The notes under the pieces: generated by a model
What the model saw: the letters and a program-made list of their open reading frames with translations, nothing else
The model's database searches: none
What the model was told of the DNA's origin: nothing
Shown here: positions 3,855 through 46,457 of the stretch, one piece after another
Position numbering within the stretch: the first letter of the stretch is position 1
Layout: every line of letters starts with the position of its first letter
Made by a program: the position numbers and the translations under genes
Assembly: GCA_964473545.1 (NCBI GenBank)
Contig: CAYYPN010000001.1
Span: forward strand, 1-53,871
Origin: an uncultured Planctomycetaceae bacterium
GTDB taxonomy: Bacteria > Planctomycetota > Phycisphaerae > Phycisphaerales > Zrk34
Direction of reading: 5' to 3'
DNA length: 53,871 nucleotides

Positions 3855-4829
3855 ATGGTCCGGTCAATGTTCAAGTGCGGTTTGCGGCTTTTGGCTTGCG
3901 GGTTGCTGTTGGGGTTTCTCGTCGGTTGTGACGATGCGCCTGCGCCGTCGTCGACGACCATGCCCGACACCGCTGCAAGCGACCCGGTACGCATTGTCAG
4001 TTTCAGCCCGGCGTTGACGCAGATGGTCATCGATCTCGGCGCCCGCGACCGGATCGTCGGCGTCGGCCGGTTCGACCCCCTTGCCGGTACAGGCCCGGCC
4101 ATCGTGGGCGATCTCAACCAGTACGACTACGAAAAACTGCTCAGCCTCGACCCCACGGTGATTCTGCTGCAGCCCCCGGCCTCGGGCGTGCCGACGAAGA
4201 TGCAGACCCTGGCCCGCGAGTATGGCTGGCGTTTGCACGCTTACGGCATCGACACCGTCGCCGACGCCAAGCGGGCGCTTTACGACACGACCGGCGTGGG
4301 CGTGGGCGCAGCGATCGGTCGCGCCGAGCAGGCCCGGGCCTTGCGCGAGCGTATCGAGTGGCAACTGGCGAATCTGGGCGTGGCGACGATCGAGCAGCCG
4401 GTGGCGGACGTGTTGCTGGTCGTGGGTGTCGGGGCGAAGGTGACCGCCGCCGGGCCGGATACGTTTCTCGATGAGTTGCTCAGCTTCGCCGGTGGGGTGA
4501 ACGTGTTGCCGGGCGGCATCAACGACTACCCTCAACTCGACCGCGAGAAGATTGTCAGCCTCAATCCCCGGGTCATCATCATCGCCCATACCGCAAGCTC
4601 CGACCCGCCGCAGGAGATCCCCTCAATTCTGGCCGACCTTGATGTGGCTGCGGTGCGCGCGGGGCGAGTGCATTGGCTGGTCGATGAGCAGGCGCTGTTG
4701 CCGAGCACGACGATGCCGCGCATCGCGGGCAAGCTGGCAAGGCTGCTGCACCCGGATCTGGCCGCGGATATCCAGGCGATTCTGAGTGATCCCGACACGT
4801 CGCAAGACGCGTCGCCGATCACACGGTAA
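3855..4829 (+). CDS. ABC transporter periplasmic substrate-binding lipoprotein (BtuF/FhuD/HmuT-type, cobalamin or iron-chelate)
   Basis: Lipobox LLGFLVGC is present. RIVSFSPALTQMVIDLGARDRIVGV is typical of the PF01497-type binding fold. A FecCD permease and an ATPase follow. The start could instead be the second ATG (3867). Confidence 0.8.
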   Translation: MVRSMFKCGLRLLACGLLLGFLVGCDDAPAPSSTTMPDTAASDPVRIVSFSPALTQMVIDLGARDRIVGVGRFDPLAGTGPAIVGDLNQYDYEKLLSLDPTVILLQPPASGVPTKMQTLAREYGWRLHAYGIDTVADAKRALYDTTGVGVGAAIGRAEQARALRERIEWQLANLGVATIEQPVADVLLVVGVGAKVTAAGPDTFLDELLSFAGGVNVLPGGINDYPQLDREKIVSLNPRVIIIAHTASSDPPQEIPSILADLDVAAVRAGRVHWLVDEQALLPSTTMPRIAGKLARLLHPDLAADIQAILSDPDTSQDASPITR

Positions 4830-4835
4830 GCTTGG

Positions 4836-5888
4836 GTGATGGCGGCGACCGCTGCACAACCTGCCCGGCATCGGCGACCGGCGACGGTGTTCATCGTCCT
4901 GGGTGTGTTGCTCGCGCTGGCAGCGATCGCACGCCTGGCCGTCGGCGAACCGATCCCCCGGCTCGACGGCGGCGCCATCGACTGGGACAAACTCGGCCAG
5001 TACCTGTCGTTTCGCACGGACCGGCTGCTGATCGGCCTGTTCGTGGGGTCGTCCCTGGCGGTCAGCGGGGCGCTGTTGCAGGCGTTGCTGCGCAACCCGC
5101 TGGCCTCGCCTTACATCCTGGGCATCAGCAGCGGCGCGGCGCTCGGCGTGGTCCTCGGCGCGTGGGTCGCCGGGGCGAGCGTGCTCGGCGTCGTCACGCT
5201 CAGCCACGGCTTCACCGAACACGTCGCCGCGGTGGTCGGCGCGCTGGGCGTCATGGCCGTGGTCTACCTGCTCGCCCAACGTCGTGGGTGGATCGATCCG
5301 CTGGGCCTGCTGCTGGTCGGCGTGATCGTCAACGCGATCAACGGCGCGGCGATCATGTTCTTCACCTACCTCATCGCACCGCTCGAAAAGGCCCGCATGG
5401 CTGAGTACATGATGGGTTACTTCAACGAGAACGCGTCGCTGACGCTGATCCTGTCGGTCGGCGGCGTGCTGACCGTGTGCATGGTGATCGCGGCGCTGCT
5501 GGGCCGGGCGATGGACGTGGCGACGCTCAGTGATGCCGAAGCGACGTCGCTGGGGCTGAGCCTGCGCACACTGCGGTTGGGTTTGTTCGCGCTGGCGTGC
5601 ATCCTCACCGCGGGCACGGTCGTGCTCGCCGGGCCCATCGGGTTCGTTGGATTGATCGCGCCGCACCTGGTTCGCCTGGCGTTGGGTCCGGCGCATCGGC
5701 CGCTGGTGATCGGGTCAGCGCTGGCCGGGGCGGTGCTGGTGGTCGGCGCCGACGCGGCGGTCAAGGCGGTCGATGCGTACGTGCATCCGATCGGCCTGCT
5801 GCCGGTGGGGATCATCACGGCGATGATCGGCGGGCCGGTGTTCCTGTGGATGCTCCGCCGCAGCCTCGACGAAGGGCGCATGGCATGA
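4836..5888 (+). CDS. FecCD/BtuC-family ABC transporter permease
   Basis: Polytopic membrane protein whose C-terminus (GLLPVGIITAMIGGPVFLWML) is characteristic of FecCD. Start is GTG 4836 or ATG 4839. Confidence 0.9.
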   Translation: MMAATAAQPARHRRPATVFIVLGVLLALAAIARLAVGEPIPRLDGGAIDWDKLGQYLSFRTDRLLIGLFVGSSLAVSGALLQALLRNPLASPYILGISSGAALGVVLGAWVAGASVLGVVTLSHGFTEHVAAVVGALGVMAVVYLLAQRRGWIDPLGLLLVGVIVNAINGAAIMFFTYLIAPLEKARMAEYMMGYFNENASLTLILSVGGVLTVCMVIAALLGRAMDVATLSDAEATSLGLSLRTLRLGLFALACILTAGTVVLAGPIGFVGLIAPHLVRLALGPAHRPLVIGSALAGAVLVVGADAAVKAVDAYVHPIGLLPVGIITAMIGGPVFLWMLRRSLDEGRMA

Positions 5889-6703
5889 CGATGGCCGACA
5901 CACAGGCCGTGTTGTCGCTCGACAACGTCAGCTTCGCCTACACGCGCGGCGCGCCGGTGATCGAGTCGTTGACCACCGCCGTCGAGCCGGGGCGGCTGCA
6001 TGCGGTGATCGGACCAAACGCCGCGGGCAAGTCGACGCTGCTCAAACTCATGCTCGGGCAACTGTCGCCGCGCACGGGCAAGGTGACGATCGACGGGGTG
6101 GCGGCGCATCGCCTGTCCGCCCGCCGCCGCGCCGCGACCGTCAGCTACGTGCCGCAGCGGTCGACCGTGTCGTTCGCCTTTACGGTCAGGCAGGTGATCG
6201 AGATGAGCCGCTTCGCCTTGCGGCGCGACCTGAGCGCGGTCAGCGATGCGATCGGATTGTGCGACCTGAGCGAGCTGGTCGACCGGCCGGTGACGACGTT
6301 GAGCGTGGGCCAGCAGCAGCGTGTGCTTTTGGCGCGGGCGATCACCCAATCGCGCGGGGCCGGGCGGGTCATGCTGCTGGATGAACCGACCAGCGCGATG
6401 GACCTGTACCACGTGCACCACCTGATGGGCGTGATCCGGGGCCTGGCCGACGAGGGGCTGGCGGTGGTGATCGTGGTGCACGATCTGAACCTCGCGGCTC
6501 GCTACGCCGACGTGGTGTGGCTGATGCACAACGGCCGCCTGGCCGCGTCGGGGGATTGGCCTGACGTGCTGCGCAGCGAGGTCCTCAGCCCGGTGTACGG
6601 GTTGGAACTGGACGAACTGCAACGCCATACCGACCCCGGCGATCCGCTGTCGCAGCGGCCGATCTTCGACGCGCGATTGCCCGATACGTTCGATCGAGGG
6701 TAG
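5885..6703 (+). CDS. ABC transporter ATP-binding protein (BtuD/FecE/HmuV-type)
   Basis: Walker A GPNAAGKST, signature LSVGQQQR and Walker B VMLLDEPTS are all present. The start overlaps the permease stop as ATGA (5885-5888). Confidence 0.9.
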   Translation: MTMADTQAVLSLDNVSFAYTRGAPVIESLTTAVEPGRLHAVIGPNAAGKSTLLKLMLGQLSPRTGKVTIDGVAAHRLSARRRAATVSYVPQRSTVSFAFTVRQVIEMSRFALRRDLSAVSDAIGLCDLSELVDRPVTTLSVGQQQRVLLARAITQSRGAGRVMLLDEPTSAMDLYHVHHLMGVIRGLADEGLAVVIVVHDLNLAARYADVVWLMHNGRLAASGDWPDVLRSEVLSPVYGLELDELQRHTDPGDPLSQRPIFDARLPDTFDRG

Positions 6704-6717
6704 AATCGTCAACCGTT

Positions 6718-7557
6718 ATGAACGCACACATGCCCACGTTCCCGGTGATGCTGGCCGACCTCAGTGATGTGATCGAGGGGCTGTTGCCGATCGTGATCTT
6801 CGCGATCATCATGATCGCGTCGGTGGTCAAGAGCATCCGCGATTCGTCGGGTTCCAAGGGCAAGCGCCAACGCCGCCCGGCGCAGGAGGAGGGCGGTCAG
6901 CCGGGCCCGGTTGCGGACTCGTCGGGCAAGCTGGAGGAGATGGCCGAACGTCGCCGTCGTCAGTTGGAGGAACTGGCCCGCCGTCGCCGTGAAGCGGCCC
7001 GTCAGCGCGAGGGGCAGCGCCAAGGCCAACGCCAGGAGCGTTCGACCCAGACCGCCGAGCGCCGCACGCCGCCACCGCCGCCGCCGAGTCAACCCACGGG
7101 TTACGTCGAACAACAACGCCAACGCGAAGAAGCCGACCGCCAGCGTCGCCGCGAGCGTGCCGAGACCGACGCCCGCCACCGCGCCCGGGCTGAGAAGCAG
7201 CAACGTGAACAGGCCCAGCGTCAGGACCAGGCCCGCGCCCAGCGTGAAGCCCGTCACCAGCGTGAACAGGAGGCGTTGCAGAAGCGTCGCCGCCGCGCCG
7301 TCGGCGCGGCCCGCGAAGTGCAACAGCAGCCGACCTTCGCCGACCAGCGTTCCCGCATGCCCAGCCACCCGACCGACTGCAGCGGGCTGCACGCCAGTTG
7401 GAGCAGCGGCGCCTACGCCAGCCATCGCCGCGGCGGGGCGGGCTACGACATCGGCAAACTCAACCGCAGTTCGCTCCGCAAGGCAATTGTCCTCAAGGAA
7501 GTGCTCGACCAGCCGATCGCCCTGCGTGATCCCCGCAGCTTCCCCGTCGACCGCTGA
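6718..7557 (+). CDS. Hypothetical single-pass membrane protein with a long Arg/Glu/Gln-rich charged segment
   Basis: N-terminal TM helix (LLPIVIFAIIMIASVV), then about 150 aa of [25 protein letters not shown]...-type sequence and a PPPPPP linker. Lies 14 nt after the ABC ATPase. Confidence 0.6.
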   Translation: MNAHMPTFPVMLADLSDVIEGLLPIVIFAIIMIASVVKSIRDSSGSKGKRQRRPAQEEGGQPGPVADSSGKLEEMAERRRRQLEELARRRREAARQREGQRQGQRQERSTQTAERRTPPPPPPSQPTGYVEQQRQREEADRQRRRERAETDARHRARAEKQQREQAQRQDQARAQREARHQREQEALQKRRRRAVGAAREVQQQPTFADQRSRMPSHPTDCSGLHASWSSGAYASHRRGGAGYDIGKLNRSSLRKAIVLKEVLDQPIALRDPRSFPVDR

Positions 7558-7586
7558 ATCCAGCGATTCGGCTATAATTCACACCC

Positions 7587-8711
7587 ATGGCACCACCCCC
7601 CACGCGAAAGCGCAAGACATCCGATTGGCCCGACTTTCTCAGCGCCCGCGTTCGCAAGCTGCGCGCCCGCTGCTACGAGGCCGAGCTGGACGGGTTCCTG
7701 GCCACCCACCCGGCGGACGTGCGATACCTCTGCGACTTTCCCGGCGAAGACAGTTGGGCCCTGGTCACCAGTCGCCAGGTCTACCTGCTCAGCGACCGCC
7801 GTTTCGATGAACAGATCGACCAGTCTTGCCCGTTCGTCAAGAAGGTGTTGCGCACCGGCCCGATGAGCGACGCCCTGGCCAACACGCTCAGCGACCTGAA
7901 GATCAAAACGCTCGGCATCCAGTCCGAACACATGACCGTGTTCACGCAACGCAAGCTGTCGAGCAAGCTCAAGGACATCAAGCTCAAGCCGACCGACAGT
8001 TGGTTGCTGGAGCATCGCGCGGTCAAGGACGACATGGAGCTGCGCCAGATCCGCCGGGCCCTGGCGGTGCAGGAGCAGGCGTGGCATCAGACGCTCGACC
8101 AGATTCGCCCGGGCATGAGTGAAGCCGAGCTTGTCGCGATGCTCGAGTACAACATGCGCTGGATCGGCGGGGAAGGGGTGAGCTTTCCGACGATCGTGGC
8201 GATCGGGCCGAACTCATCGCTGCCGCACCACATCGTCGGCCGCACCCGCGTCAAGGCGACCACGCCCATCCTCATCGACTTCAGCGCCATGGCCGGCGGC
8301 TATACCGGCGACCTGACGCGGGTCGTGGCGATCGGCGGGTTGAGCAAGAAGCTGATCGAGGTTTACCACGTGGTGCTCGAAGCCCAGCGGGCGGGCATCG
8401 ACGCCATCGGTCCCGGGGCCAAACTCAAGGACGTCGATGCCGCGGCGCGGCAGGTCATCAACGACGCCGGCTACGGCGATCAGTTCGGCCACGGCCTGGG
8501 CCACGGCATCGGGTTGGACGTGCACGAACAACCGACGCTCAGCCCGCGCTCCAGGGGCGAGCTGGTCGAGGGCAACGTCGTGACCGTCGAGCCGGGCGTG
8601 TACCTGCCGGGCGTGGGCGGCGTGCGGATCGAGGACGACGTGCTGGTGACGAACACCGGGCATCGCAAGCTGAGCACCTTGCCCTCATCGCTGGAATCCG
8701 CGATTATTTAG
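7587..8711 (+). CDS. M24-family Xaa-Pro aminopeptidase/dipeptidase
   Basis: Metal-ligand motifs of the M24B fold are present: GYTGDLTR, HGLGHGIGLDVHE and TVEPGVY...GGVRIEDDVLVT. Confidence 0.9.
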   Translation: MAPPPTRKRKTSDWPDFLSARVRKLRARCYEAELDGFLATHPADVRYLCDFPGEDSWALVTSRQVYLLSDRRFDEQIDQSCPFVKKVLRTGPMSDALANTLSDLKIKTLGIQSEHMTVFTQRKLSSKLKDIKLKPTDSWLLEHRAVKDDMELRQIRRALAVQEQAWHQTLDQIRPGMSEAELVAMLEYNMRWIGGEGVSFPTIVAIGPNSSLPHHIVGRTRVKATTPILIDFSAMAGGYTGDLTRVVAIGGLSKKLIEVYHVVLEAQRAGIDAIGPGAKLKDVDAAARQVINDAGYGDQFGHGLGHGIGLDVHEQPTLSPRSRGELVEGNVVTVEPGVYLPGVGGVRIEDDVLVTNTGHRKLSTLPSSLESAII

Positions 8712-10626: not shown

Positions 10627-10644
10627 TAGGCGTCCAGCCAAAAG

Positions 10645-10798
10645 CGAAGTAGCGAATGGCGCGGTTTCACTTGCAACGCAGCGTTATGGTGCCACACCTT
10701 GAGCCCGCCAGGGGCAAGGTGTGACCACGCCCGCACACCTTGAGCCGTGGGGATCAAGGTGTGGCACGCTACAGAGAAACGGAAACCGCGCTACTTCG
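10645..10798. other. Multi-hairpin structured element between the convergent accC and cvpA-like genes (candidate bidirectional terminator or REP-like element)
   Basis: There are two tandem hairpin units: cacaccttg/caaggtgtg (10693-10723) and cacaccttga/tcaaggtgtg (10734-10763). An outer interrupted stem encloses them: cgaagta...gcgcggtttc (10645-10668) pairs with gaaaccgcgc-tacttcg (10782-10798). Confidence 0.55.
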
Positions 10799-10812
10799 TT
10801 ATTGGCTTTCGC

Positions 10813-12468
10813 TTACTCGACATTCACATCCAGCGTCTGCTCGCTGGCGTTGCCGATTCGGAATTCGACCAGGTGTGAGCCGCGGCTGACGCGGAAGTAG
10901 AGGATGAGCGTGTCGTCGCCGGAGAGTTGATCGATATCGCGGATCTGCCCCAGGTAGTCGATGGTCCGGGTCGTGTCGATGTCCAGGTGGATGACCGGTT
11001 CGCTGACCCGTATCGCGCCGACGGCCCGATAGGTGTAGCCGTCTTCATCGACGAGCATGGGCGTCTGCGTGCGGGCGGCCAATTGCATCGCCTTGCCCAG
11101 CAGCGATCGGGCGCGGCTGGCGGTCATCTCGATCCGCACGATCCGCTGGGCGCTGGGGCTGTGGATGCGATCGACGACGAGGTTGCGGTGCGGCCGATCC
11201 ATGCGGTCATAGTTGATCTGGCCGGTCGCGGAGATGATCGCGTTGTCGTCGGTCATGCGCAGGTTCTGGGAGTGGTGCGTCAGCGTATTCAGGTTGAGCG
11301 GCATGGGCAGGCGCCCGCCGACGCCGACCTTCAGCGCCTCGACCTCCGCCCCGGGGCCGGCGCCGGGTTCGAGGTCGTTGCTGTCCACGTCGGCAAGGTC
11401 GGGCTGCGGCTTCGGCCGCGTCCACCGCGTGTTCTCGATCCAACCGACGATGTCTTCCGTGGCGACGGCCGATTCGTCCGGCAGGTCCAGCCGCAGTTGC
11501 TTGACCCGGACGAAGCGCGGCTCCAGACCCGCGGGCACGTGGTAGATCACGTCGACCATGTCGGTGTCGGCGGACTTGGTCCACAGGCGATCGCCCGGCG
11601 TGTGCAGCGTGCCGTACGCCTCGCCCACGCGATGCACCCAGCCATGCGGCAGGATCAACTGCGCACTCGACGAATCGATCGGGTTGACCGCCAGCATCGG
11701 CAACTGCGCGGCGCTGGCGGTGAACTGGCCGTCCTGGTCGGCGGCCTGGTTGACGGCGATCTCCATGCCGACGACGTACACCCGCTGGTCGCCGGCCGGC
11801 TTCTGGGCGTACGGCGCATCGGACGGGTTGATCTCGAAGAACCGGTCGATCGTGACGCTGCCCGGGCGGATGGCCTTGCGGGCGTTCTGGCGCGCGGTGA
11901 TCTGGAACAGGCCCGCCGACACCGCAAGGCGCGGTTGGCGATTGCTCACCGTCGCATCGGAAAGGGTCGGACTGAACGGCCCGGTGCTCAGGCCCGCGAA
12001 GACCGACCCGGCGAACGTGTCGGCCGGCAGCCAGAGCGTATCGAATCGTTCGATGCGGCCGGCGGCACCCAGGCGGTAGGGCTGGTACCCGGGCACGCCG
12101 GTGCTGATGAATTGCAGGCCGATGACCAGGAACCCCGCGGTGACCAGGCCGATGATCACACCGACCGCGCCGCCGACGAAGAGGTTGACGAGATTATGGA
12201 AGTCGACGTTGCCCGGCGCGAGCTTGTCCGCCGCGACGCGCAGGCCGACCATCAGCAACACGAACGGCGCGAGCAAGCCCACGCCCCACGCATACTCGGG
12301 CATCCGCTCCAGGAGGTACCCCACGGTCAGCGGCTCCCACACCGCCAGTGCCAACGATCCGGCCACGAGCGTGACCACCAGGTGCAGGATCGCGCTGAAC
12401 AGCCCCTGCGAGCCGAACCACACGGCCATGAGGATCACGAACGCGACAAGCAGGAGGTTAACGATCAC
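10813..12468 (-). CDS. Membrane protein with an N-terminal CvpA-like multi-TM domain fused to an uncharacterised C-terminal domain of about 360 aa
   Basis: The first ~190 aa form 4-5 hydrophobic helices in a CvpA-family style (MIVNLLLVAFVILMAVWFGSQGLFSAILHLVV...). I recognise no motif in the remainder. The GTG start overlaps the upstream stop (GTGA), and AAAGGAGG lies upstream. Confidence 0.6.
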   Translation of the reverse strand: MIVNLLLVAFVILMAVWFGSQGLFSAILHLVVTLVAGSLALAVWEPLTVGYLLERMPEYAWGVGLLAPFVLLMVGLRVAADKLAPGNVDFHNLVNLFVGGAVGVIIGLVTAGFLVIGLQFISTGVPGYQPYRLGAAGRIERFDTLWLPADTFAGSVFAGLSTGPFSPTLSDATVSNRQPRLAVSAGLFQITARQNARKAIRPGSVTIDRFFEINPSDAPYAQKPAGDQRVYVVGMEIAVNQAADQDGQFTASAAQLPMLAVNPIDSSSAQLILPHGWVHRVGEAYGTLHTPGDRLWTKSADTDMVDVIYHVPAGLEPRFVRVKQLRLDLPDESAVATEDIVGWIENTRWTRPKPQPDLADVDSNDLEPGAGPGAEVEALKVGVGGRLPMPLNLNTLTHHSQNLRMTDDNAIISATGQINYDRMDRPHRNLVVDRIHSPSAQRIVRIEMTASRARSLLGKAMQLAARTQTPMLVDEDGYTYRAVGAIRVSEPVIHLDIDTTRTIDYLGQIRDIDQLSGDDTLILYFRVSRGSHLVEFRIGNASEQTLDVNVE

Positions 12469-14165
12469 GACGCGCCTCCTTTGGTCGCCGCGGTTTGCCC
12501 GGCGCCGCTCTTGCCGGAGGATTCGGCCTGGCCGAGCGCTCGCATGACTTCGCTGATGCTGGTCTGGCCGTTGACGACCTTGGCCAGCGCCGCTTCCTGG
12601 AGCCAGAGCATCTTGTTTTTGCGGACGTGCGACCGCAGGCCGTTCAGGTTGCCTTTGCCGAGCAACTGGCGGGCCTGTTCATCGAGGACCATGACTTCGA
12701 AGGCCGCGGTGCGCCCGTGGAAGCCCAGGCCGTTGCACGTGGGGCAGGGCTGGGTCTGGTCCTTGGGGGCGGGGATGCGTCCGCTGGATTTGTACAGTTC
12801 CTTGATCCGGTCGGCCGGCAGGTTGAGCTTCTTGAGCGCCGCGGCGTCGGGTTGATACGCCTGGCGACACACGGTGCAGAGCTTGCGCACCAGCCGCTGG
12901 CAGATCACCGCGCGAGTGCCCTGGCCGACCAGTTCCAGGTCGCCGACCGTCTTGGCCCAGGCCTTGAGTGCGGCGAAGGTGTCGTCGGCGCGAATGCCGA
13001 CGTAGATGCGTTTGTGATCGGTCGCCGCCTTGGCCGCGAGCTTGGCGGTTTCAGTGTCGGCGATCTGGCCGACCATGACCACCGCCGGGTCGCGCAGGAG
13101 CAGGCTGTTGAGCGACTTGCTCCAGCCTGACTCGCCCGGCGCGTGCTGGCTGACGCCTTCGACGTCGGTTTCGATCGGTTGTTCGAGCGTGTGGATGTCG
13201 GTCAGGTACGGATCATGCTGTTGGAGCAGGGCGTAGAGCGTGGTCGTGCGGCCGTGGTCCGGCGGTGCGGCGACGATGACCAGGCCTTCGTTTTCCACCA
13301 GCAGGGGCTTGAGCTGATCGTGCTGGCTTTCGAGCAGGCCGAGTTCCTCGAACGGCCGGTTGAGCTGCTTGCGTCGGTCGATGTCGATCTTGAGCGTGAG
13401 CCCGCGGGTGGAGCCGGCGGTTTCGACTTCGAGGTTGTGCTGGCCGAGTTCACCGAGGTCGATGCGGGTGGTGCCTTCCTGCTTGCGGCGGCGGTCGTCG
13501 GTGTCCAGGCCGCACTGCCACTTGAGGTAGTCGATCGCGGCGAGGGCCTCGCCCGGCTGCATTGCATCGTGACGGTACGGCACGCCGTCGACGTGCAGGC
13601 GCACCGCCAGGTCGTTGCCGCTCAGGGCGATGTCGATCTTCTCGGCCCGCTGCTGGAGGGCGGTGGTGAACAGGGCGTCGAGGGAGATGTGGGCCTGGTA
13701 CTGCGGGTCTTCCTGGAGCGGGACGGGCTTGAAGTGGCTGGCCGACTCGCTGGACTTGCCGACGAAGCGAAGGGCGACGTCGCGTTCGGCGCTGGCCTGT
13801 TCGCGTTGGAGGAGGATGCGCTGGATGCCGGCGGTGCTGAGGTGCCAGCGTTCGTTGTCGGGGACCTTGGGGTTGCGGATCATCACGTAGGCCACGCCGG
13901 CGCCGACGGTGAACATCAGGAACAGCAGCAGCCCGAGCCAGAACCAGGGGATGACCAGCCACAGCAGCAGCCCGAGTGCGCCGGCCCCGAGGGTCAGGCC
14001 GTTGAGCATGCGGCGTTGGAGATAGAAGTAGCCCGCGTCCTTGTCGAGGATGCTCGCCCAGCGAGCCCAGGCCAATACGACGACCAACATCAACAACGGC
14101 TTGAAGATGCTGACCATGAACACCGGTTCAGCGGCAAGCAGAGCGGGCATCAGCGGGCGCCTCAC
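12465..14165 (-). CDS. Membrane-anchored GspE/PilB-family protein with degenerate ATPase motifs (predicted pseudo-ATPase)
   Basis: N-terminal TM helices are followed by a GspE-like core. Walker A reads AAPPDHGRTTT (canonical GPTGSGKTTT). The Asp box reads LEQPIE (EDPIE). Walker B reads VMVGQIAD (MVGEIRD). The His box is lost. The tetracysteine motif CTVC...CPTCNGLGFHGRTAAFEV is retained. An alternative ATG start lies at 14150. Confidence 0.75.
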   Translation of the reverse strand: MRRPLMPALLAAEPVFMVSIFKPLLMLVVVLAWARWASILDKDAGYFYLQRRMLNGLTLGAGALGLLLWLVIPWFWLGLLLFLMFTVGAGVAYVMIRNPKVPDNERWHLSTAGIQRILLQREQASAERDVALRFVGKSSESASHFKPVPLQEDPQYQAHISLDALFTTALQQRAEKIDIALSGNDLAVRLHVDGVPYRHDAMQPGEALAAIDYLKWQCGLDTDDRRRKQEGTTRIDLGELGQHNLEVETAGSTRGLTLKIDIDRRKQLNRPFEELGLLESQHDQLKPLLVENEGLVIVAAPPDHGRTTTLYALLQQHDPYLTDIHTLEQPIETDVEGVSQHAPGESGWSKSLNSLLLRDPAVVMVGQIADTETAKLAAKAATDHKRIYVGIRADDTFAALKAWAKTVGDLELVGQGTRAVICQRLVRKLCTVCRQAYQPDAAALKKLNLPADRIKELYKSSGRIPAPKDQTQPCPTCNGLGFHGRTAAFEVMVLDEQARQLLGKGNLNGLRSHVRKNKMLWLQEAALAKVVNGQTSISEVMRALGQAESSGKSGAGQTAATKGGAS

Positions 14166-14218
14166 AGGCAGGGGGGTCGAACGGTCGGCGGCGTGGCGGC
14201 CGGGCCTGTTGTGCCGAT

Positions 14219-15370
14219 TCAGGATCCGGTCGTGCGAATCCCTTTCAGCCGCATCTTCAACTCGTCGGCGTTGTGAGCCGCCGACATCGCCACACGCGGA
14301 TGAATGTACTCTTTCTGCACCAGATCGACAAGGCTGCTGGTCAGGTCGAGCATGCCGGCCTCACGGCTGTCGCGGATCACGTCGCCCAGTTCGGACTCAC
14401 GCTCATCATAGATGTATTTCGAGACCACCGGGCTGTTCAGCAGCACCTCCACCGCCGGCACCCGGGACAGGTCCTCCCGCAGGCACGGCAGCAGTCGCTG
14501 GTAGATCACCGCCTTCATGTTCGCCCCGAACATCTCGCGGATCAGGTCCCGCTCATTCGGGGGAAACAGGTTGTAAATCCGTCCGAACGCCTGGCTGGCG
14601 CTGGACGCGTGGACGGTGCCGAACACCAGGTGACCGGTTTCGGCGGCCTGGATCGCGGCCTCAAACGTCTCGCGATCGCGCAGCTCGCCGATCAGCACCA
14701 CGTCGGGATTCTCACGCACCAGCGCCCGCAACCCCGTGGCAAAGTCCGGCACGTCCACCCCGACCTCGCGCTGGTTCACCACCGACTTGGCGTCCTTGAA
14801 GATGTACTCGATCGGGTCTTCCAGTGTCACGATGTGGCAGGCGCGGTTCTCGTTGATCTGCTGGATCATCGAGGCGATGGTCGTGCTCTTGCCGCTGCCG
14901 GTCACGCCGCACAGCAGGACCAGTCCCTGCGTGGCCTCGGCGACCGTGCCCAGCACCTCGGGCAGGTGCAGTTGTTCATAAGAAAGGATCTCGCTGCTGA
15001 CGCGGCGGGCGGCGACGGCGATGTGCCCTCGGGCGAGGAACACGTTCACGCGGAAGCGATTGTCGTCATCGAAGTCGTACGCCATGTCCACCGAACCGTG
15101 CGTGCGGAAGTGCTCCATCTGCCCGGCGGTAAACAACTGCTCGGCGGTTTCGAGCAGTTCCCGCTCGGTGAAGGCCTCGGACTTGAGCGCCCGCAACTCG
15201 CCCTTGACGCGCAGGCGCGGGGCGATGTCGGGCTTGACGATCAGGTCCGACGCCTCGTACTTGATCGCCTGCTGGAAACACTTGCGCAGGCGATTGCCCT
15301 TGAGGCGATCTTCCTTGCCGACCTGCTCGACGTTGATGTCCAGCGGTTGTCGATCCACATCGGAGTTCAT
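14219..15370 (-). CDS. pilT: PilT-family type IV pilus retraction-type hexameric ATPase
   Basis: Canonical motifs are present: [10 protein letters not shown] (Walker A), [17 protein letters not shown] (Walker B) and [10 protein letters not shown] (His box). The track ORF was trimmed to MNSDVDRQ at 15370. Confidence 0.9.
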
Positions 15371-16215
15371 ACGGCAATTCCCTCGGCTAGACGGACGGGC
15401 ACACCCTGCTGGGCAAGGTACTGCTTGGTTTGGTCGACGGTGTATTCGTTGTAGTGGAAGATGCTGGCGGCGAGTGCGGCCGACGCGCCGGCGCCGCCTT
15501 CGTCGGTGGCTTTGAGGACCGCGGCCATGTGCTCGGGCGAGCCGCACCCGCCCGAGGCGACAACCGGAACGTTCACCGCCTCGACCACCGCCCGGGTCAG
15601 TTCCACGTCGTAACCGTCCCGGGTGCCGTCGGCGTCCATGCTGGTCAAGACGATCTCGCCGGCGCCCATCTCCACGACGCGCTTCGCCCAGGGGACGGCT
15701 TCGAGGCCGGTCGGGGTGCGCCCGCCGTGGGTGTGGACTTCGAACACCCGGCCGTCGCTGCTGAGCGGGCCTTGGGGTTCGTGTCCGGTGCGTTCGACGA
15801 AGTCCCTGCGGTCGACGCGTTTGGGGTCGATGTTGACGACGGTGGCGCACCGGCCGAAGCGGCGGGCGGTCTGCTCGACGATCTCGGGGCGGGTGACGGC
15901 GGCGGTGTTGATGCTGACCTTTTCCGCGCCGGCCTGCACGAGCCGCGTCACGTCGTCGATCGTCCGGATGCCCCCGCCCACGGTGAAGGGCATGAAGCAC
16001 TGCTCGGCGACCTGGCGGACGACGTCGAAGATGATCTGGCGATTCTCGTGGCTGGCGGTGATGTCCAGGAACACCAGCTCATCGGCGCCCTGTTCGTCGT
16101 AGCGGCGGGCGACTTCGACGGGGTCGCCGGCGTCGCGGATGTTGACGAAGTTCACGCCCTTGACCACGCGCCCGCTGCGGACGTCGAGGCACGGAATGAT
16201 GCGACGGGTCAACAT
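15367..16215 (-). CDS. hisF: Imidazole glycerol phosphate synthase cyclase subunit
   Basis: [23 protein letters not shown]...FLDITAS...PFTVGGGIR...ASGGCG is a canonical HisF barrel. Its stop overlaps the pilT start as ATGA. Confidence 0.95.
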
Positions 16216-16343
16216 GACCGGCCAGTATATCCCGGTTGGGCGGCCCTCGCCTCGCCCGGGCCGGGGCTGGGTATGCAACTTCTGCAGACGGCGGTCGCAT
16301 GGGTTTACCATTCGCCAAACCCCGCCTTTACAAGGAGTCCTTA

Positions 16344-18443
16344 ATGTCCGCCAGATTGCCCCTTTGCATGTTGCTCGTCTGCCTGGCTGTCCCCGCGTTG
16401 GCCGACAGTCCCATGCCGACCGACGCGGAGATGGAGCTGCGCGACCCGAACATTCCCGAAGCGTGGATGAACGAGTACATTGTTACCGCCACACGCTCGC
16501 GGATGGCGCGGTATGAGACGCCTTACGCGACGGACGTGGTCGGCGGCGAGCAGATGAACCGCCGCCAGTACCGCACCGTGCCCCAGGCCCTGCGCGACGT
16601 GCCGGGCATCATGGTCCAGGAAACTGCGGTCAGCCACGGCTCACCCTACATCCGCGGGTTCACCAGCTTCCGCAACCTCTTCCTCATTGACGGCATCCGC
16701 CTGAACAACGCCGTCTTCCGCCCCGGCCCCAACCAGTATTGGGGCACCCTCGACGCGTCGATCGTCGATCGCCTGGAAGTCGTCAAGGGTCCGTCCAGCG
16801 TGCTGTATGGCTCCGACGCCATCGGCGGCACGGTCAACGCCCTGACGATCAACCCATATGCGTACAACGAGGCCGATCACTGGGCCGGCAAGACGCGCTA
16901 CCGCTACGCGACGGCCGAGAACTCTCACGCGGTTCGCAGCGAACTGAGCTTCGGCTACGGAGATTGGGGCGCGGTCGGCGGTGGGACGTACCGCAACTTC
17001 GGCGACCTCCGCGCCGGCAACGGCACGGGTCTGCAGCCCAACACCGCCTACGACGAGTGGCACGCCGACGTGAAGGTCGAGCACTTCCTTAATGACCAGG
17101 TTCGACTCGTCGCCGCGTACCAGATGATGCGGCAGAACAACGCCCCGCGCACGCACAAGACTCACTGGGCCAAACCTTTCGAGGGCACCACCGACAGCGG
17201 CGAGCAACGCCGCGACCTCGACCAGGAGCGCAGCCTCGCCTACGTGCAGGCCCATGCCGAGGGCCTCGATGGCCCGGTGTCCAACTGGCACGCCAGCCTC
17301 TCGTGGCAGCGCCAGGCCGAGGTGCGCGACCGCATCCGCGGGTTCGGCGACGATCGCCAGGATGAACAGGGCTTCGACGTGAACACGCTCGGCTTCTGGG
17401 TGCAGGCCGAAAGCCCCACGCCGATCGGCACGCTCGTCTACGGCCTGGATTACTACCGCGACTGGGTCGCCTCCTTCAGCTCCACCAACCCGATCCAGGG
17501 ACCCGTGGCCGACGACGCGACGTATGACCTGCTGGGGGTGTTCGTGCAGGACACCATCGCCCTCGGCGAGCAGGTCGAGGTGATCCTCGGCGGACGGTTC
17601 ACCTTCGCCGCCGCCGACGCCGGGCGGGTCAACGTCAACGACACGTCGCAGAGCATCGACGAGCAGTGGTACAACTTCGCCGGCAACGGGCGCGTGATCT
17701 GGTTTGTCGATCCGGCCAAGCGTTATGCGGTGTTCGGCGGCGCGAGCCAGGGCTTCCGCTCGCCCAACCTCTCGGACCTGTCGCGCGACACCGACTTCGG
17801 CGGCGGCGTCGAAACCCCCGCGCCCAACCTCGACCCCGAGCATTACCTCATGGTCGAAGTCGGCGCCAAGACCCGCCACGACAACCTCACCGCCGAGGCC
17901 AGCTTCTTCCATTACTTCATCGAGGACCAGATTCTGCGTGTGCCGACCGGCCCCGGCGTTGAGTTCGGCAAGATTAACTCCGATGAAGGTTACATGCAGG
18001 GCGTGGAATTCGGCCTGGCGTGGCGGTTCGCTCCCGAGATGACCCTGTTCGGCAACTTCGCCTACCTCGATGGCGAGGTTCAGAGCATCCGCGCTGACGG
18101 CACGGTCTTCGATGACTACCCCTCGCGGATCGCCCCGCCCATGGGGCAGGTCGGCCTGCGGTATGAGTCGAACAACCTGCCGCTGTGGATCGAGGGCCTG
18201 GCCCGCTTCGCCGGCGACGGCGACCGCCTCAGCGCCCGGGACAAGTCCGACACCGACCGCATCCCGGCCCAGGGCACGCCCGGCTACGCCGTCGCCGACC
18301 TCCGCGTCGGGTACGACCCGACCGAGTGGACGACGATCGCGGTGGGCCTGGAGAACATCACCGACGAGGACTACCGCGTGCACGGGTCAGGCCACAACAT
18401 GCCCGGCCGCAACCTCGTGATGAGCGTGGAGATTCGCTACTGA
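16344..18443 (+). CDS. TonB-dependent outer-membrane receptor
   Basis: Signal peptide, then plug-domain motifs ([14 protein letters not shown]...[37 protein letters not shown]), and a C-terminal barrel ending ...SVEIRY. AAGGAG lies upstream of ATG 16344. Confidence 0.9.
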
Positions 18444-18562
18444 GTTACGAACAGGCCGAGCTTGCCCTGGCGGCGCTGGCGGATGAGGCCGCGGCCGCCG
18501 ATGACCAAGCCTCCAACCGGACCGCGCCGCATATCGTCTCCTTGCGGCGCGGTCGCGGTTTG

Positions 18563-19378
18563 ATGAGGAAACGCCGCTCGCTGATCGTGTCGGTGCTGGT
18601 GCATGTCGCGGTGTTCGGCGCGGTGTTCATGTCGGGCGACCCGGAGCTTGCCGATGCGACGGTCGAGCCGCGCATCGCGTTCGCCACCGGCAACGCCGCG
18701 GTGATGGTGCGGTTCCTCAGCCCCGAGCAACTGGCCGCCCTCGAGCGTGGCGAGCAACTGGAGCAAGTGGCGCCGGTTGCCGCGCCCCGGGTCCAGCCCG
18801 ATCGCCCGCCCATGCCCGCCGCGAAGCCGACGCGGGTCGCCCAGTTCGAGTATCAACCAACACCCAGGGACGGTCCGGCCACCATCGACTCGACCCACGC
18901 CCGGGCCCGACCGCTGCCCGAACCCGTCCCGCGCCCCACCACGCCGAGCCACAGCGAAGCGCCGGCTCGGGTCGCCTCCAACCCCCAGCCCGAACCCGAA
19001 TCCGCAACCCAGCCGCGCCCCTCGCTCGTGCACGCCAAACCCGTTCAAGCCTCAAGCAGCCCGCAACCCGAGGCCCGCGCCACGCAGGGCGCCGCCGGCG
19101 TGACCCGTGACGCGGTCGTGACCGACCTGCCCCGCCCGACGTACCCGACGATCAGCCGCCGCCGCGGCGAGGAAGGCCTGGTCCTGCTCCACGTCACCGT
19201 CGATCCCGACGGCCGCCCCCGGAACATCGAGGTCATCAGCGATCCCGGCTTTCCGCGCCTGGTCGACGCGGCCCGCGATGCCGTCCAACGCGCCCGCTTC
19301 CGACCGGCCATGCGCCACGGCCAACCCGTCCCGGGTGCCGTCCGCGTCCCCATCCGCTTCCGCCTGGTCAACCAGTAA
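18563..19378 (+). CDS. tonB: TonB-family energy transducer
   Basis: N-terminal anchor (RRSLIVSVLVHVAVFGAVF), a Pro-rich spacer, and a TonB C-terminal domain (YPTISRRRGEEGLVLLHVTVDPDGRPRNIEV...A.RARFRPA). Confidence 0.8.
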   Translation: MRKRRSLIVSVLVHVAVFGAVFMSGDPELADATVEPRIAFATGNAAVMVRFLSPEQLAALERGEQLEQVAPVAAPRVQPDRPPMPAAKPTRVAQFEYQPTPRDGPATIDSTHARARPLPEPVPRPTTPSHSEAPARVASNPQPEPESATQPRPSLVHAKPVQASSSPQPEARATQGAAGVTRDAVVTDLPRPTYPTISRRRGEEGLVLLHVTVDPDGRPRNIEVISDPGFPRLVDAARDAVQRARFRPAMRHGQPVPGAVRVPIRFRLVNQ

Positions 19379-20594: not shown

Positions 20595-21139
20595 TGGAGG
20601 GTTCGGGGTTCGGGTTCTTCAACTGGCTCCTGACCACCGACAACTGACCCCCGGCAACCGACCCCCGCCCTGTCCGCATGGGGGGGGGTAACCGCCACCG
20701 CGCCGGGATCGCCGATCGGTAACCTCGCGTACGTACGAGACATACCAGTACAAGCGACCGTGTCGGATCCATGTCAGTGTCATGTCAGGCCGGACATGGC
20801 GAAAAAATTTTCACCGCTGTATCCCCTGCAATATATATCATTTACGCCGACTCACCTGAATAGGGGTGACAAAGCGGTGTGCGTAACCGTTGGTCCCGCC
20901 CGGCTCCAGCCACAAAGCCGCCGATGGCATCGGCGGCATCTTGATGACACCGGGATGGTGACCTGTGGGCTTCAGGGATCGGATCGTAGCCGAATCCGTT
21001 TGACAGGCGCATACTGTGGTGTATGTTTATTGTATACCGTATTTACCGTACGGCCGGGAAACTGTCGGTGGCTCGTGCGTGCGAGCTGGCGGGTGGATAA
21101 GGATGATGTTGAAGCTGTGTTTGCACAGGCTTGGAGGCA

Positions 21140-23019
21140 ATGATGAATATCGCGAAGCGGACTGCGGCCATGGTCGCGATCATGTTGGCTGGATCCCTGG
21201 GCACCGCCCAGGCCGACTGGCTGCCCACCGCGGGCGGCACGTACGACTACCTCGATGCCAACAACTGGGCCGGGGGTGTGGTCGACGGCAACTTCCCCGC
21301 GTCGTTGACGTTGACCGGCAGCCAGGTCGCCACGTTCGACGCCGGTCACACGACCGGGCCGCTGCTAAACTTCGGCTACGACGGCGACTTTGGCGTGACG
21401 TTGCGGGCCGACGGCGTTGCGGACCAGACGCTGACGCTCGACGGCAACGTGAATGTCGATACCGCCGGCGGTTCCAACGCCAACGTGACGATCGGCAGCA
21501 CCACCGCGAATGAGAAGCTGAACGTTGACCTGGGCGGCGCGCCGCGCACGTTTGACGTGGCCGCGGCCCGGACGCTGACCGTGCAGAACGTCGTGTCCAA
21601 CGGCGGGCTGATCAAGGCCGGCGACGGGACACTGTCACTCAAGGGCGTCAACACCTACGCCGGCGGGACCACGTTCGCCGGGGGACAGGTGAACTACACG
21701 TCGGATGACAACCTCGGCGCCGCCGGCGCGGACCTGACCTTCGACGGCGGGGCGATGGTCTATGACAACGGCGCCAGCTACGCCACCAGCCGCGACATCA
21801 CGGTCAACGCCGGCGGCGGAACGATCATGACCGACCGCGTCAACACGACCATCACCTTCAACGGCCAACTCAGCGGGACGGGCAAGTTGGATCTGTCGCT
21901 GGTGGGATTCGGCAACCCGGTGTATGTGTTCACGCAGGACAACTCGGGGTTCAGCGGTGGTATGGAATCCTTCGACAGTCGCGTGACGATCGAGTTGCGA
22001 GATCCCAATGCCGCGGGCACCGGATCCATCGCCAACGAAGCCTTCAATAACCTCAAGCTCAATCTTCGCGACGATGCGGATACGACCTACAACTTCGCCG
22101 GCATCGAGAAGAGTCACGGGCCGTTGCAGATCGACGTCGACCAGGAAACCGGCGCGGGTGCGGGGCGCACGCTGACGATCCCGGTGATCAACGTCAACTC
22201 GATCGTCGGGAACAACACAAACGCCAGCATCACCGCCACCGGCGGGCACGACTACCAGTTGGCCATCACCCAGTTGAATCTGAACGATAACAGCGGCCAT
22301 GACTTTTTCGTCATCGCCGACGCGAACACGATCGTCGGGGCGCTGGACATGGATCGGGCCGACCACCTGGTGCTCGACGGCGCCGCGACCGGCAGCCGCA
22401 TCACCGGCGCGATCACCAGCGAGGTGAACAACGCCAACGCCAACGTCGGCCGCATCGACAAGCAGGGCGCCGGCACGTGGGAGTTGGCGGGTGACAGCAC
22501 CTACAACGGCAAGACCACCATCACCGAAGGCACGCTGCTGGTGACCGGATCGATTACCCCCAACGCCAACCTCGGCGGGGTGTTCGTCGACGGCGGCACG
22601 CTCGGCGGCGGCGGCGATGTCAACACGTTCGTTGTCATTGCGACCGGAGCTACGATTGCGCCCGGACGAGCATCGGCGACCTGGCCGTCGGGGATACCAC
22701 CCTCGACGGCAACTTCGACGTCGAAGTCGGCGCCGGCGACAGCGATACCCTCGTCGTCGACGGTGACCTGGCCCTGTCCGACGTCACCAGCATCCTCAAC
22801 CTCACCGGCACGTTCGACGACGTGACCAACTATGTCATCGCCACTTACACCGGCACGTTGAACGGGGCGTTCAGCCAGATCAACGGCCTGGACGGCACGG
22901 GCTACACCCTCGATTACGGCGACCGCGACGACGGCCAGATCACACTGCTGGTGCCCGAGCCGGCGAGCCTGGCGTTGCTGGGCGTGGGCGCGATGCTGGT
23001 GGTTCGACGGCGGCGGTGA
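21140..23019 (+). pseudogene. PEP-CTERM-anchored surface protein with autotransporter-associated beta-strand repeats, interrupted by one frameshift near 22664-22669
   Basis: Signal peptide (MNIAKRTAAMVAIMLAGSLGTAQA) and repeat motifs (GGLIKAGDGTLSLKGVNTYAGGTTF; DKQGAGTWELAGDSTYNGKTTITEGTLLV). After ...GATIAPG the sensible reading moves to another frame: SIGDLAVGDTTLDGNFDVEV...LLVPEPASLALLGVGAMLVVRRRR, which is a PEP-CTERM signal ending at 23019. Confidence 0.75.
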
Positions 23020-29283: not shown

Positions 29284-30215
29284 TCCGAATGGCCTGGGCT
29301 CAAACCAACCCGACGCCCGACGCGGCCAAGTCGCCCGACGCTCGCAACGCCGAGCTCGTCGAGATCATCCGCGCCTACAACGACGTGACCGACCGGTTGC
29401 AGCAGAGCCACGAGGTGCTGACCGGCGAGGTCGCCCGGCTTCAGCGTGAGCTGGCGTCGGCTAACGCGGCGTTGCAGCGGTCGCGCCGCCTGGCGGCGCT
29501 GGGCGAGATGGCCGCCGGCATCGCCCACGAAATCCGCAATCCCCTGGCTTCCATCCAGCTCTACACCAATATGCTCGAGGAAGACCTGGCCGACCGCCCG
29601 CCGCAGCAGGACCTGGCCAACCGGATTTCCGCCGCCGTGCGCGGGCTCAACGGGATCGTCGGCGATGTGCTGACGTTCAGCCGCGAAATGAAGCTGCGCT
29701 GCGTCGAAGGCTCGGCGATCGAGGCGCTGCAGCGCGTCGCGGATGTGCTCGCCCCGCAACTGGAACAGGCCGGCGTCACCGTGCAATATCAAGGCGAGGA
29801 TCGCCTGGTCCACCACGACCCGGAGATGCTGCACCAGGCGCTGGTCAACCTCGTCCGCAACGCCGCCGAGGCCATGACCGACGGCGGCACGCTGACCCTG
29901 GCCGTGCAACAGGTCGACGGCGACAACGAGGCGACGTGCCTGGTCGTGCGCGACACCGGCCCGGGCATCAGCGACGAAGCGATCGATCGCATTTTCAATC
30001 CGTTCTTCACCACCCGCGCCACCGGGACCGGGCTCGGCCTGGCCATCGTGCACCGCATCGTCGACGCCCACGGCGGATCGATCGGCGTGCACAACGACCC
30101 GGCGGGTGGCGCCGTGTTCACGTTGACGTTACCGCCCGCCGGCGCGCATGACACCGATGCCGATGCCCAAGCCGACGCCGCGCAAGCCATTACGGAGATC
30201 GCCGCTCATGGATAA
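29280..30215 (+). CDS. Soluble sensor histidine kinase (HisKA + HATPase_c, no TM or obvious sensor domain), FlgS/FleS/FlrB-like by context
   Basis: H-box MAAGIAHEIRNPL, N-box LVNLVRNAAEA, G1 VRDTGPGI, G2 GTGLGLAIV. The start overlaps the flgN-like stop (ATGA). Confidence 0.85.
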   Translation: MIRMAWAQTNPTPDAAKSPDARNAELVEIIRAYNDVTDRLQQSHEVLTGEVARLQRELASANAALQRSRRLAALGEMAAGIAHEIRNPLASIQLYTNMLEEDLADRPPQQDLANRISAAVRGLNGIVGDVLTFSREMKLRCVEGSAIEALQRVADVLAPQLEQAGVTVQYQGEDRLVHHDPEMLHQALVNLVRNAAEAMTDGGTLTLAVQQVDGDNEATCLVVRDTGPGISDEAIDRIFNPFFTTRATGTGLGLAIVHRIVDAHGGSIGVHNDPAGGAVFTLTLPPAGAHDTDADAQADAAQAITEIAAHG

Positions 30216-31581: not shown

Positions 31582-31679
31582 GATGGATGTTCGGCGCAAC
31601 ACTTGCGCGGCCGCGCAACACCTGCCTGCGGTGCGTCACGCGATCGGCGATGGCGACACGGCAGCCGGGGCCCCGCGGC

Positions 31680-31693
31680 GGCACCGGGGTTGC
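31680..31693 (+). promoter_or_regulatory. Sigma54 (-24/-12) promoter upstream of flgB
   Basis: cGGCACcggggTTGCg has GG and GC spaced exactly as in the TGGCAC-N5-TTGC consensus. It lies about 40 nt upstream of the flgB ATG and directly after the enhancer-binding-protein gene. Confidence 0.65.
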
Positions 31694-31734
31694 GCCCTGA
31701 CGCGTGCGGTGTTGCGCTTGTGGAAGGTCCGGTC

Positions 31735-32169
31735 ATGATCGACGGCATGTTTGACAGTGGGGCGATGCCCGTGCTCGAGCGGATGGTGCAGTTCACCGCC
31801 CAGCGCCATCGCATGCTCGCCCACAACATCGCCAACCTCTCCACGCCCAACTTCCAGCCGACCGACCTGGACACCGCCAGCTTTCAGGAGGAACTGGGCC
31901 GCGCCATCGACGCCCGCCGCCGGCAACCGGCGGGAATGAATCAGCCCCTGGAGATGCAGGACACCGGCCAACTGGAATTCAGCGAGCATGGCATTGAAGC
32001 CAAGCCCCAGCGCACCAACGACAACATCCTCTTCCATGATCGCAACAACCGGTCGTTGGAGCGGCTGATGCAGCACCTGGCGGAGAACGCCGGCGTGCAC
32101 AATTCCAGCCTCGAAATGCTGCGGAACGAATTCGCCATGCTCGAAACCGCCATTCAGGAGCGGGTCTGA
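31735..32169 (+). CDS. flgB: Flagellar basal-body rod protein FlgB
   Basis: RHRMLAHNIANLSTPNFQPTDL is the rod-protein N-terminal signature. First gene of the flgBC-fliE order. Confidence 0.85.
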   Translation: MIDGMFDSGAMPVLERMVQFTAQRHRMLAHNIANLSTPNFQPTDLDTASFQEELGRAIDARRRQPAGMNQPLEMQDTGQLEFSEHGIEAKPQRTNDNILFHDRNNRSLERLMQHLAENAGVHNSSLEMLRNEFAMLETAIQERV

Positions 32170-45796: not shown

Positions 45797-45846
45797 TCGA
45801 CGCGATCAAGCCGCGTGCAACGCCCCGTAAAGAAGGAAGGTCACGG

Positions 45847-46374: not shown

Positions 46375-46457
46375 TACGTTCATTTTGACCACGCTCAAGG
46401 GATGCCGAACGGAGTTCGGCGGGCCGACCCCGGTGGGGTTCGGCCACCACGCCACGG

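Follow-up and report, generated by a model that had tools for sequence, protein, structure and literature searches.

The window analysed here, a stretch of 53,871 nucleotides from an uncultured planctomycete (contig CAYYPN010000001.1), carries on the minus strand at 10813-15370 three packed genes that encode a PilT-type ATPase, a membrane-anchored protein related to GspE/PilB and predicted to be a pseudo-ATPase, and a CvpA-like membrane protein with a long C-terminal extension. The pilT, GspE-like and CvpA-like genes are a conserved unit, found in planctomycetes that are mostly labelled Phycisphaerae. In our reading, type IV filament ATPases gave rise to this trio as a so far uncharacterised module that spans the envelope; its function is what we infer from the parts. 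In the direction of transcription, the open reading frame (ORF) calls place pilT (383 aa, a PilT/PilU-family hexameric ATPase) at 14219-15370, the GspE/PilB-type gene (566 aa from a GTG start, assigned by PF00437) at 12465-14165 and the CvpA-like gene (551 aa, a domain of four transmembrane (TM) helices followed by the C-terminal region) at 10813-12468. An earlier reading of the same DNA, referred to below as the original prediction, had described three packed minus-strand genes with a 53-nt gap and a GTGA overlap, and these coordinates and junctions were recovered unchanged when reread in the sequence.

The first protein of the trio belongs to the PilT family and is predicted to be catalytically competent. 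It scored 380.9 bits on TIGR01420, the NCBIfam model of PilT/PilU (cut-off 319.1), with the full model covered, and its closest solved relatives are PilT proteins, the best being Aquifex PilT (2ewv, 2.9e-72). The Walker A motif, the Asp box (TLEDPIEY), the Walker B motif and the His box are intact, and all four were kept in each of the 34 aligned PilT sequences. The classical PilT motif AIRNLIRE is not present. The aligned segment reads VSKYIYDE in the window protein, with the clade consensus x-KYILEGRE in the orthologues.

The second protein has the fold of a type IV filament ATPase and has lost most of the corresponding catalytic residues. Residues 161-542 matched PF00437 (3.9e-43), and the best sequence match in the Protein Data Bank (PDB) was EpsE of Vibrio cholerae, while the protein fell far under the equivalog cut-offs of both GspE (TIGR02533; 187 vs 630 bits) and PilB (TIGR02538; 161 vs 676 bits). 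Alignment to EpsE revealed a degenerate Walker A motif at 13242-13268 (minus strand; APPDHGRTT in place of the canonical GPTGSGKST), a degenerate Walker B motif at 13056-13082 (minus strand; VVMVGQIAD in place of VVMVGEIRD), a change of EDP to EQP and a lost His box. Degeneracy of these boxes runs through the 120 orthologues that were aligned. The position of the Walker A lysine is occupied by Arg in 55 of them, followed by Leu (22), Met (13), Val (8) and Gln (7), so that a residue out of Leu, Met, Val, Gln, Thr, Gly, Ala or Ile stands there in 62 and Lys in just three. The catalytic glutamate of Walker B was likewise kept in three orthologues, the canonical histidines of the His box were mostly gone (present in 11 and 4 of 120), and prolines are conserved within the P-loop. 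On the evidence of these motifs, the dead-ATPase state appears to be ancestral and not private to the window. The structural features of the family were retained: all four cysteines of the tetracysteine zinc site (CxxC...CxxC) are invariant in 120 of 120 orthologues, the RRRKQxG motif of the N2 domain is conserved, and the C-terminal third is the best-conserved region of the protein.

The AlphaFold2 (AF2) model of the GspE-like protein, with a mean predicted local distance difference test (pLDDT) score of 93.3, begins with three TM helices and a linker helix, after which come an N2 domain and a C-terminal domain of PilB type. Its soluble part was superimposed by Foldseek on the cores of PilB, PilF and GspE with a template-modelling score of 0.88 and a root-mean-square deviation of 2.5-2.9 A. 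The TM helices (16-41, 46-66 and 70-95 in the numbering of the 561-aa form) are encoded at 13866-14105 on the minus strand and were also indicated by a hydropathy scan. They take up the first 100 residues and replace the soluble N-terminal domains of GspE/PilB; no match to the soluble N1 domain (T2SSE_N) was obtained in the protein. Counts of Lys and Arg over the 120 orthologues were 0 at the N-terminus, 2.8 in loop 1, 0 in loop 2 and 3.0 after the third helix, and the predicted topology has the N-terminus outside and the ATPase-like domain in the cytoplasm. The pairing of an intact motor with a catalytically dead, membrane-tethered paralogue, the central element of the original prediction, is thus borne out at the level of motifs and models, with the PilT motifs complete in 34 of 34 sequences, the Lys and the Glu of the paralogue each lost in 117 of 120 and three TM helices in front of its ATPase-like core.

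The third protein combines a CvpA-type membrane domain with a C-terminal region of about 430 aa that has no recognisable family or fold. In its AF2 model (pLDDT 88.9), the 4-TM domain comprises residues 1-119 (12112-12468, minus strand) with helices at 2-21, 23-55, 60-83 and 92-119, and the predicted periplasmic region comprises residues 120-551 (10813-12111, minus strand, stop codon included). This region is laid out as a membrane-proximal segment, a beta-sandwich (about 200-346), a disordered linker rich in acidic residues and Pro (350-378) and an alpha/beta domain (379-549). The window protein itself had no Pfam or NCBIfam match, PF02674 (CvpA) included, even at E<=10; PF02674 was matched by 22 of 35 homologues at E<=0.01, the best reaching 2e-08. 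The assignment is further supported by individual residues, since an Asp (D81) is conserved in at least 90% of the family and three glycines (G99, G103 and G112) are invariant, G99-x3-G103 forming a GxxxG motif; an Asp, three Gly and a GxxxG motif have likewise been described for CvpA as conserved almost universally (bioRxiv 10.1101/2020.09.25.314492). Mean column conservation was 0.58-0.66 in the 4-TM domain, whereas it ranged from 0.22 to 0.47 downstream.

The loop between the third and the fourth TM helix is rich in Lys and Arg and places the C-terminus outside, in agreement with published topology predictions for CvpA of four TM helices and a periplasmic C-terminus (bioRxiv 10.1101/2020.09.25.314492). 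The C-terminal region is therefore predicted to be periplasmic. No Pfam domain other than PF02674 was found in any of the 35 family members, and a Foldseek search of the PDB with the full model returned nothing under E = 0.017, with template-modelling scores of at most 0.12. The additional domain had been described before as carrying no known motif, which still stands, and as about 360 aa long, which has to be revised to about 430 aa. Weak beta-sandwich similarities to DUF4426 (3uc2, E = 0.017), to Ig-like domains of adhesins and to the beta-barrel of MexA were considered and not taken as homology. Two homologues of about 745 aa (P0176 and P0285) contain a second copy of the C-terminal alpha/beta domain, which therefore seems to be an independent, duplicable unit.

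To place the trio among its relatives, we used 47 loci from a pattern scan, with one genome per species, and determined the gene order by tblastn with the window proteins. All 47 loci belong to metagenome-assembled genomes (MAGs) of Planctomycetota, most of them with the label Phycisphaerae or Phycisphaerales; names such as 'Klebsiella' or 'Isosphaeraceae', as carried by third-party-annotation MAGs, are unreliable. In each of the 45 loci with upstream DNA, the CvpA-like gene is immediately preceded by the GspE-like gene, and in each of the 42 that have room for it, pilT comes one gene further upstream. Order and strand of the trio are constant in all loci, with lowest identities of 53% (PilT), 33% (GspE-like protein) and 25% (CvpA-like protein). 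In the relatives, pilT is separated from the GspE-like gene by 20-189 nt, and the spacer from the GspE-like gene to its CvpA-like neighbour runs from -4 to 165 nt. When the ORFs of the 47 loci were clustered, the families of the trio appeared in 42, 39 and 33 loci and the next family in 16; the commonest other neighbours are the housekeeping genes guaB, accC, hisF and murD, each in at most 16 loci. The comparison of gene neighbourhoods that had been proposed along with the original prediction consequently turned out in its favour, with the neighbourhood conserved in 42 to 45 independent loci.

The CvpA fusion extends far beyond these loci. A word-indexed search with the profile of the family added nothing to the 35 CvpA-like proteins, and an exhaustive search with a profile hidden Markov model showed the family to be about 30 times larger, with 2056 relatives, of which the top 150 are all full length, and 1074 representative clusters at E<=1e-30. 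This number of clusters indicates that the CvpA-fusion family is large, old and under long-term selection.

Genes that could complete a pilus or a secretion system were searched for in the window and around the trio of its relatives. Pfam scans were run on most ORFs of the window, the regions at about 2.6-4.8 kb, 8.7-10.6 kb and 22.8-24 kb being unscanned, and the gene table of a syntenic relative covers the homologous stretch to about 2.5 kb of the window. The relatives were read as neighbourhoods of 21 kb, four of which (L048, L050, L052 and L053) were annotated with Pfam. No match to pilin, prepilin peptidase, GspF/PilC, PilMNOPQ or secretin families was obtained among the scanned ORFs of the window, and none of its six frames contains a prepilin-type N-terminus, so that the reported lack of pilus and secretion genes in the window holds to this extent. 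Genes for T2SSF, secretin, peptidase A24 or PilMNO were also missing from the four annotated contexts. Scans for prepilin N-termini over 858 kb, made up of the window and the related loci, gave one site under strict and three under relaxed settings, the three being N_methyl-type N-termini in the flanks of L027, L039 and L053; none of them is positionally conserved. A linkage of pilins to the trio was rejected on account of these few sites without a conserved position. The original prediction had depended on no canonical gene set of a type IV pilus (T4P) or a type II secretion system (T2SS) lying just outside the window. This part stood in so far as no such set was linked to the trio in the four annotated relatives or in the 858 kb; it did not stand without exception, as L053 has one N_methyl gene that is not conserved elsewhere. 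In that locus (4694-7650), the DNA just ahead of pilT encodes, on the pilT strand, a 705-aa protein of no known family and the prepilin-type protein (N_methyl, GRAFTLVELLVV); three tiny ORFs come next. This gene is the sole hint of a pilin-like neighbour, and the arrangement was not conserved in other loci. The term orphan applies to the neighbourhood of the trio and not necessarily to its genome, because pilT genes commonly sit apart from other pil genes and the reading was one of neighbourhoods.

Two further functional contexts were considered and rejected. An involvement in anti-phage defence was not supported, given that PADLOC yielded generic P-loop matches for PilT and none for the other two proteins, and the trio sits among housekeeping genes. 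A link to the flagellar gene cluster that lies 13 kb off in the window was discarded as well, since the flanks of L048, L050, L052 and L053 contain no flagellar genes and flagellar families are not represented among the ORF clusters that many loci share.

With regard to transcription, the three genes form part of a longer unit in this genome. The gene hisF, which encodes the cyclase subunit of imidazole glycerol phosphate synthase (PF00977, assigned to the orthologues), occupies 15367-16215 on the minus strand with a probable start at the ATG at 16215, as inferred from the ORF list. Its stop codon overlaps the start of pilT as ATGA at 15367-15370, a junction absent from the original prediction, and the unit is therefore hisF-pilT-gspE-like-cvpA-like. 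The 53 nt between the stop of pilT and the GTG of the GspE-like gene (14166-14218, minus strand) were read from the sequence; an alternative start is the ATG at 14150, which gives 561 aa and corresponds to the public gene call P0036. At the last junction, the stop of the GspE-like gene and the start of the CvpA-like gene overlap as GTGA, with a Shine-Dalgarno sequence, AAAGGAGG, just 5' of it. Judging by these overlaps, the hisF-pilT pair and the GspE-like/CvpA-like pair are to be regarded as translationally coupled in the window. A sequence scan detected no terminator-like site in either intergenic junction of the unit from hisF to the CvpA-like gene. The sole minus-strand terminator-like match lies within the CvpA-like gene (12266-12285), and the frequency of such matches was not above that in shuffled sequence.

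Why a histidine-biosynthesis gene should be co-transcribed with the trio, as predicted here, is not obvious. Among the 47 loci, hisF occurs at most about 350 nt upstream of pilT in nine, is directly upstream in L048, L050 and L052, and is farther away or absent in the rest. L052 is the cultured strain ZRK34, whose complete genome (CP050848.1) carries the hisF-pilT adjacency; it counts, like L050, among several distant relatives in which this adjacency recurs. Other complete genomes with the trio are OY763327.1, OZ245998.1 and OY771506.1. In view of its position near pilT in a minority of loci only, hisF is unlikely to be a functional member of the module. At the other end of the unit, nearly all of the spacer between the convergent accC and CvpA-like genes (10640-10815) is one long imperfect palindrome, which includes two hairpins of the same stem (CACACCTTG...CAAGGTGTG) at 10693-10723 and 10734-10763. 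Folded as RNA, the spacer has an energy of -86.8 kcal/mol (z = -6.9 vs shuffles), and the pair of hairpin motifs has no other copy in the window. A bidirectional terminator is one possible identity of the palindrome, a small repeat element another.

PilT and PilB motors are understood almost wholly through pilus, secretion and archaellum machines that are built on a PilC/GspF platform and pilins. With the motor set of type IVa pili, the trio shares a PilT-family ATPase with all catalytic boxes and a paralogue of PilB/GspE fold with a tetracysteine zinc site. In contrast to these pili, however, the PilB-like partner is catalytically degenerate and inserted into the membrane by three TM helices, PilT does not conserve the AIRNLIRE motif, and the operon and its surroundings are without PilC/GspF, PilM/N/O/P/Q, prepilin peptidase or a conserved pilin. 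The GspE-GspL-GspF assembly of the T2SS resembles the trio in the GspE-type N2 and C-terminal domains with their zinc-binding CM subdomain, and in the predicted tethering of an ATPase-like ring to the inner membrane. The tether is nevertheless a different one, namely a fused 3-TM segment in the trio and an N1 domain bound to the bitopic GspL in the T2SS; furthermore, the Walker A, Walker B and His boxes of the trio protein are lost, and its membrane partner is a CvpA-type 4-TM protein instead of GspF. To our knowledge, classical T2SSs also lack PilT, unlike the trio.

The motor of the archaellum, FlaI-FlaH-FlaJ, consists of an active hexamer of the T2SSE superfamily, a non-hydrolysing partner of ATPase fold and a polytopic membrane protein, and the logic proposed for the trio resembles this one. 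This is a functional analogy only: FlaH is of the RecA/KaiC type, neither a T2SSE paralogue nor inserted into the membrane, FlaJ is a homologue of GspF/PilC, and apart from the ATPase superfamily there is no homology between the parts. The colicin V production protein CvpA (PF02674) corresponds to the third protein of the trio in its 4-pass inner-membrane domain, the Asp, the three Gly and the GxxxG motif, and in a variable periplasmic C-terminal extension. It differs in that the window protein is under the detection level of Pfam and in that the extension consists of about 430 aa of unmatched beta-rich domains. Fusions of a CvpA domain to a periplasmic domain that follows the four TM helices are known, as in MarP of Mycobacterium tuberculosis. 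In the open-access literature, we found neither a CvpA protein linked to ATPases of the T2SSE family nor a description of the trio, which accords with the earlier statement that no characterised system of such composition was known.

Taken together, we tentatively favour, at somewhat short of an even chance, that the three proteins form one inner-membrane complex, in which the dead PilB-like ring tethers or presents PilT at the membrane, the TM bundles provide the coupling and the periplasmic domains are the output. The pseudo-ATPase would assemble into a membrane-tethered PilB-like ring and serve as a docking adaptor or platform substitute for the PilT hexamer, thereby replacing GspL/PilM as the anchor and perhaps GspF/PilC as the platform. 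The TM helices of the pseudo-ATPase would pack on the strongly conserved TM bundle of the CvpA-like protein, and ATP-driven movements of PilT could then be relayed via the TM helices to the periplasmic domains and from there to a substrate in the envelope, for which a filament or pseudopilin pool or another envelope component are candidates. A more far-reaching version, which we regard as rather unlikely but as having an appreciable chance, sees in the trio a self-sufficient envelope machine that descends from type IV filament ATPases and needs no pilin. In it, the PilT hexamer would pull on or rotate the membrane-embedded ring of dead PilB paralogues, and the channel-like bundle of CvpA type would carry the work through the inner membrane to the novel periplasmic domains.

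Several points weigh against a single complex of this kind. The catalytic loss of the GspE-like protein is deduced from motifs, and some nucleotide binding could persist because Arg, at the Walker A Lys position, is found in 55 of 120 orthologues. The predicted placement of the C-terminal domain of the CvpA-like protein in the periplasm derives from the positive-inside rule and the topology predictions for CvpA. In addition, conserved operons can contain proteins without mutual contact, pilT is often found away from the rest of the pil genes, and PilT could act mainly on a classical platform elsewhere in the genome. Developed into an explanation of its own, this last point would make PilT the ordinary retraction motor of a T4P/T2SS-like system, with the pseudo-GspE and the CvpA-like protein as accessories that act as a parking site, a localisation factor or a competitive regulator of the access of PilT to PilC/GspF, comparable in logic to the PilU, PilZ/FimX or TadZ partners of pilus motors. 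We consider such an accessory role unlikely but a serious candidate. PilT is above the cut-off of the PilT/PilU family and close to solved structures of genuine PilT proteins, pilT(-pilU) loci usually lie apart from pilBCD and pilMNOPQ, and prepilin-type genes do occur in genomes with the trio, as the N_methyl N-termini in L027, L039 and L053 demonstrate. However, no pilus gene was located in a conserved position near the trio in 858 kb, AIRNLIRE is replaced throughout the clade, and a periplasmic domain of 430 aa and a conserved 4-TM bundle are not obviously needed by a pure regulator.

It is improbable that the pseudo-GspE and the CvpA-like protein form a complex for envelope stress or maintenance that makes no mechanical use of PilT, with pilT only sharing the operon. 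CvpA has been tied genetically to envelope stress through the sigma-E response in E. coli, and its variable periplasmic C-terminus was proposed to bind periplasmic partners (bioRxiv 10.1101/2020.09.25.314492). The GspE-like and CvpA-like genes are also the tighter-coupled pair, with spacers down to -4 or 0 nt. Yet pilT is ahead of this pair in 42 of 42 loci long enough to contain it, whereas every other neighbour varies, and a ring derived from PilB would be a natural partner for a hexamer of the PilT family. Activity of the GspE-like protein as a non-canonical ATPase, that is, as an extension-type motor opposite PilT in a two-motor system with a fused membrane anchor, would agree with the conserved fold, zinc site and RRRKQxG motif and with the Arg in 55 orthologues, but is made very improbable by the residues out of Leu, Met, Val, Gln, Thr, Gly, Ala or Ile at the Lys position in 62 of 120, by the loss of the Walker B Glu in 117 and of the His box, and by the prolines in the P-loop. 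Inherited synteny without a functional link is hardly credible as the cause of the adjacency. All loci come from one phylum, and shared ancestry accordingly contributes to the conservation, but the trio remains complete and compact at protein identities of 25-50% whereas its flanks turn over (hisF, guaB, accBC, murD and others).

The trio is unlike known machines in that its PilB-type partner is a membrane-inserted pseudo-enzyme by prediction, its only other membrane component is of the CvpA family and no pilin or platform is linked to it. If the proteins do form one complex, this would be a new way of coupling a motor of the T2SSE superfamily to the envelope and would provide the first mechanistic partner for the enigmatic CvpA family. 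Two new protein families would be part of it, one a pseudo-GspE anchored by TM helices, the other a CvpA fusion that has a periplasmic fold without a match and comprises over 1000 representative clusters. Should even the autonomous machine prove true, it would represent a new class of force transducer from the cytoplasm to the periplasm, and could bear on the uptake of macromolecules into the planctomycete periplasm or on envelope remodelling without FtsZ. Since a cultured carrier exists in strain ZRK34, the hypothesis is open to experiment.

The surroundings of the trio in the window comprise genes of iron or cobalamin-type uptake, accBC and a gene for a peptidase of family M24. TonB-dependent uptake genes are present on both sides (3855-7557 and 16236-19378), among them a receptor (16236-18443), a TonB_C protein (18185-19378) and a FecCD permease (4836-5888); synteny with L048 also points to genes for an ABC-transporter ATPase and a periplasmic binding protein, and the closest relative has the same arrangement. 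A 564-aa protein with PATR (passenger-associated transport) repeats is encoded on the plus strand at 21131-22825 and may be an autotransporter-like surface protein. The flagellar cluster extends over 28711-52498 on the plus strand and includes FlgN, rod proteins of the FlgB/C type, FliE, FliF, FliG, FliH, FliI, FliJ, FliK, FlgD, FlgE, MotA, MotB, FliO, FliP, FliQ, FliR, FlhB and FlhA, together with a sigma-54 response-regulator activator at 30148-31581. Inside or beside this cluster, the ORFs at 31603-32169, 38419-39123 and 45841-46455 (minus strand) gave no Pfam match. At the end of the window, a protein with a BlaR1-type peptidase M56 domain is encoded on the plus strand at 52651-53688, with an unusually high G+C content at third codon positions (0.98).

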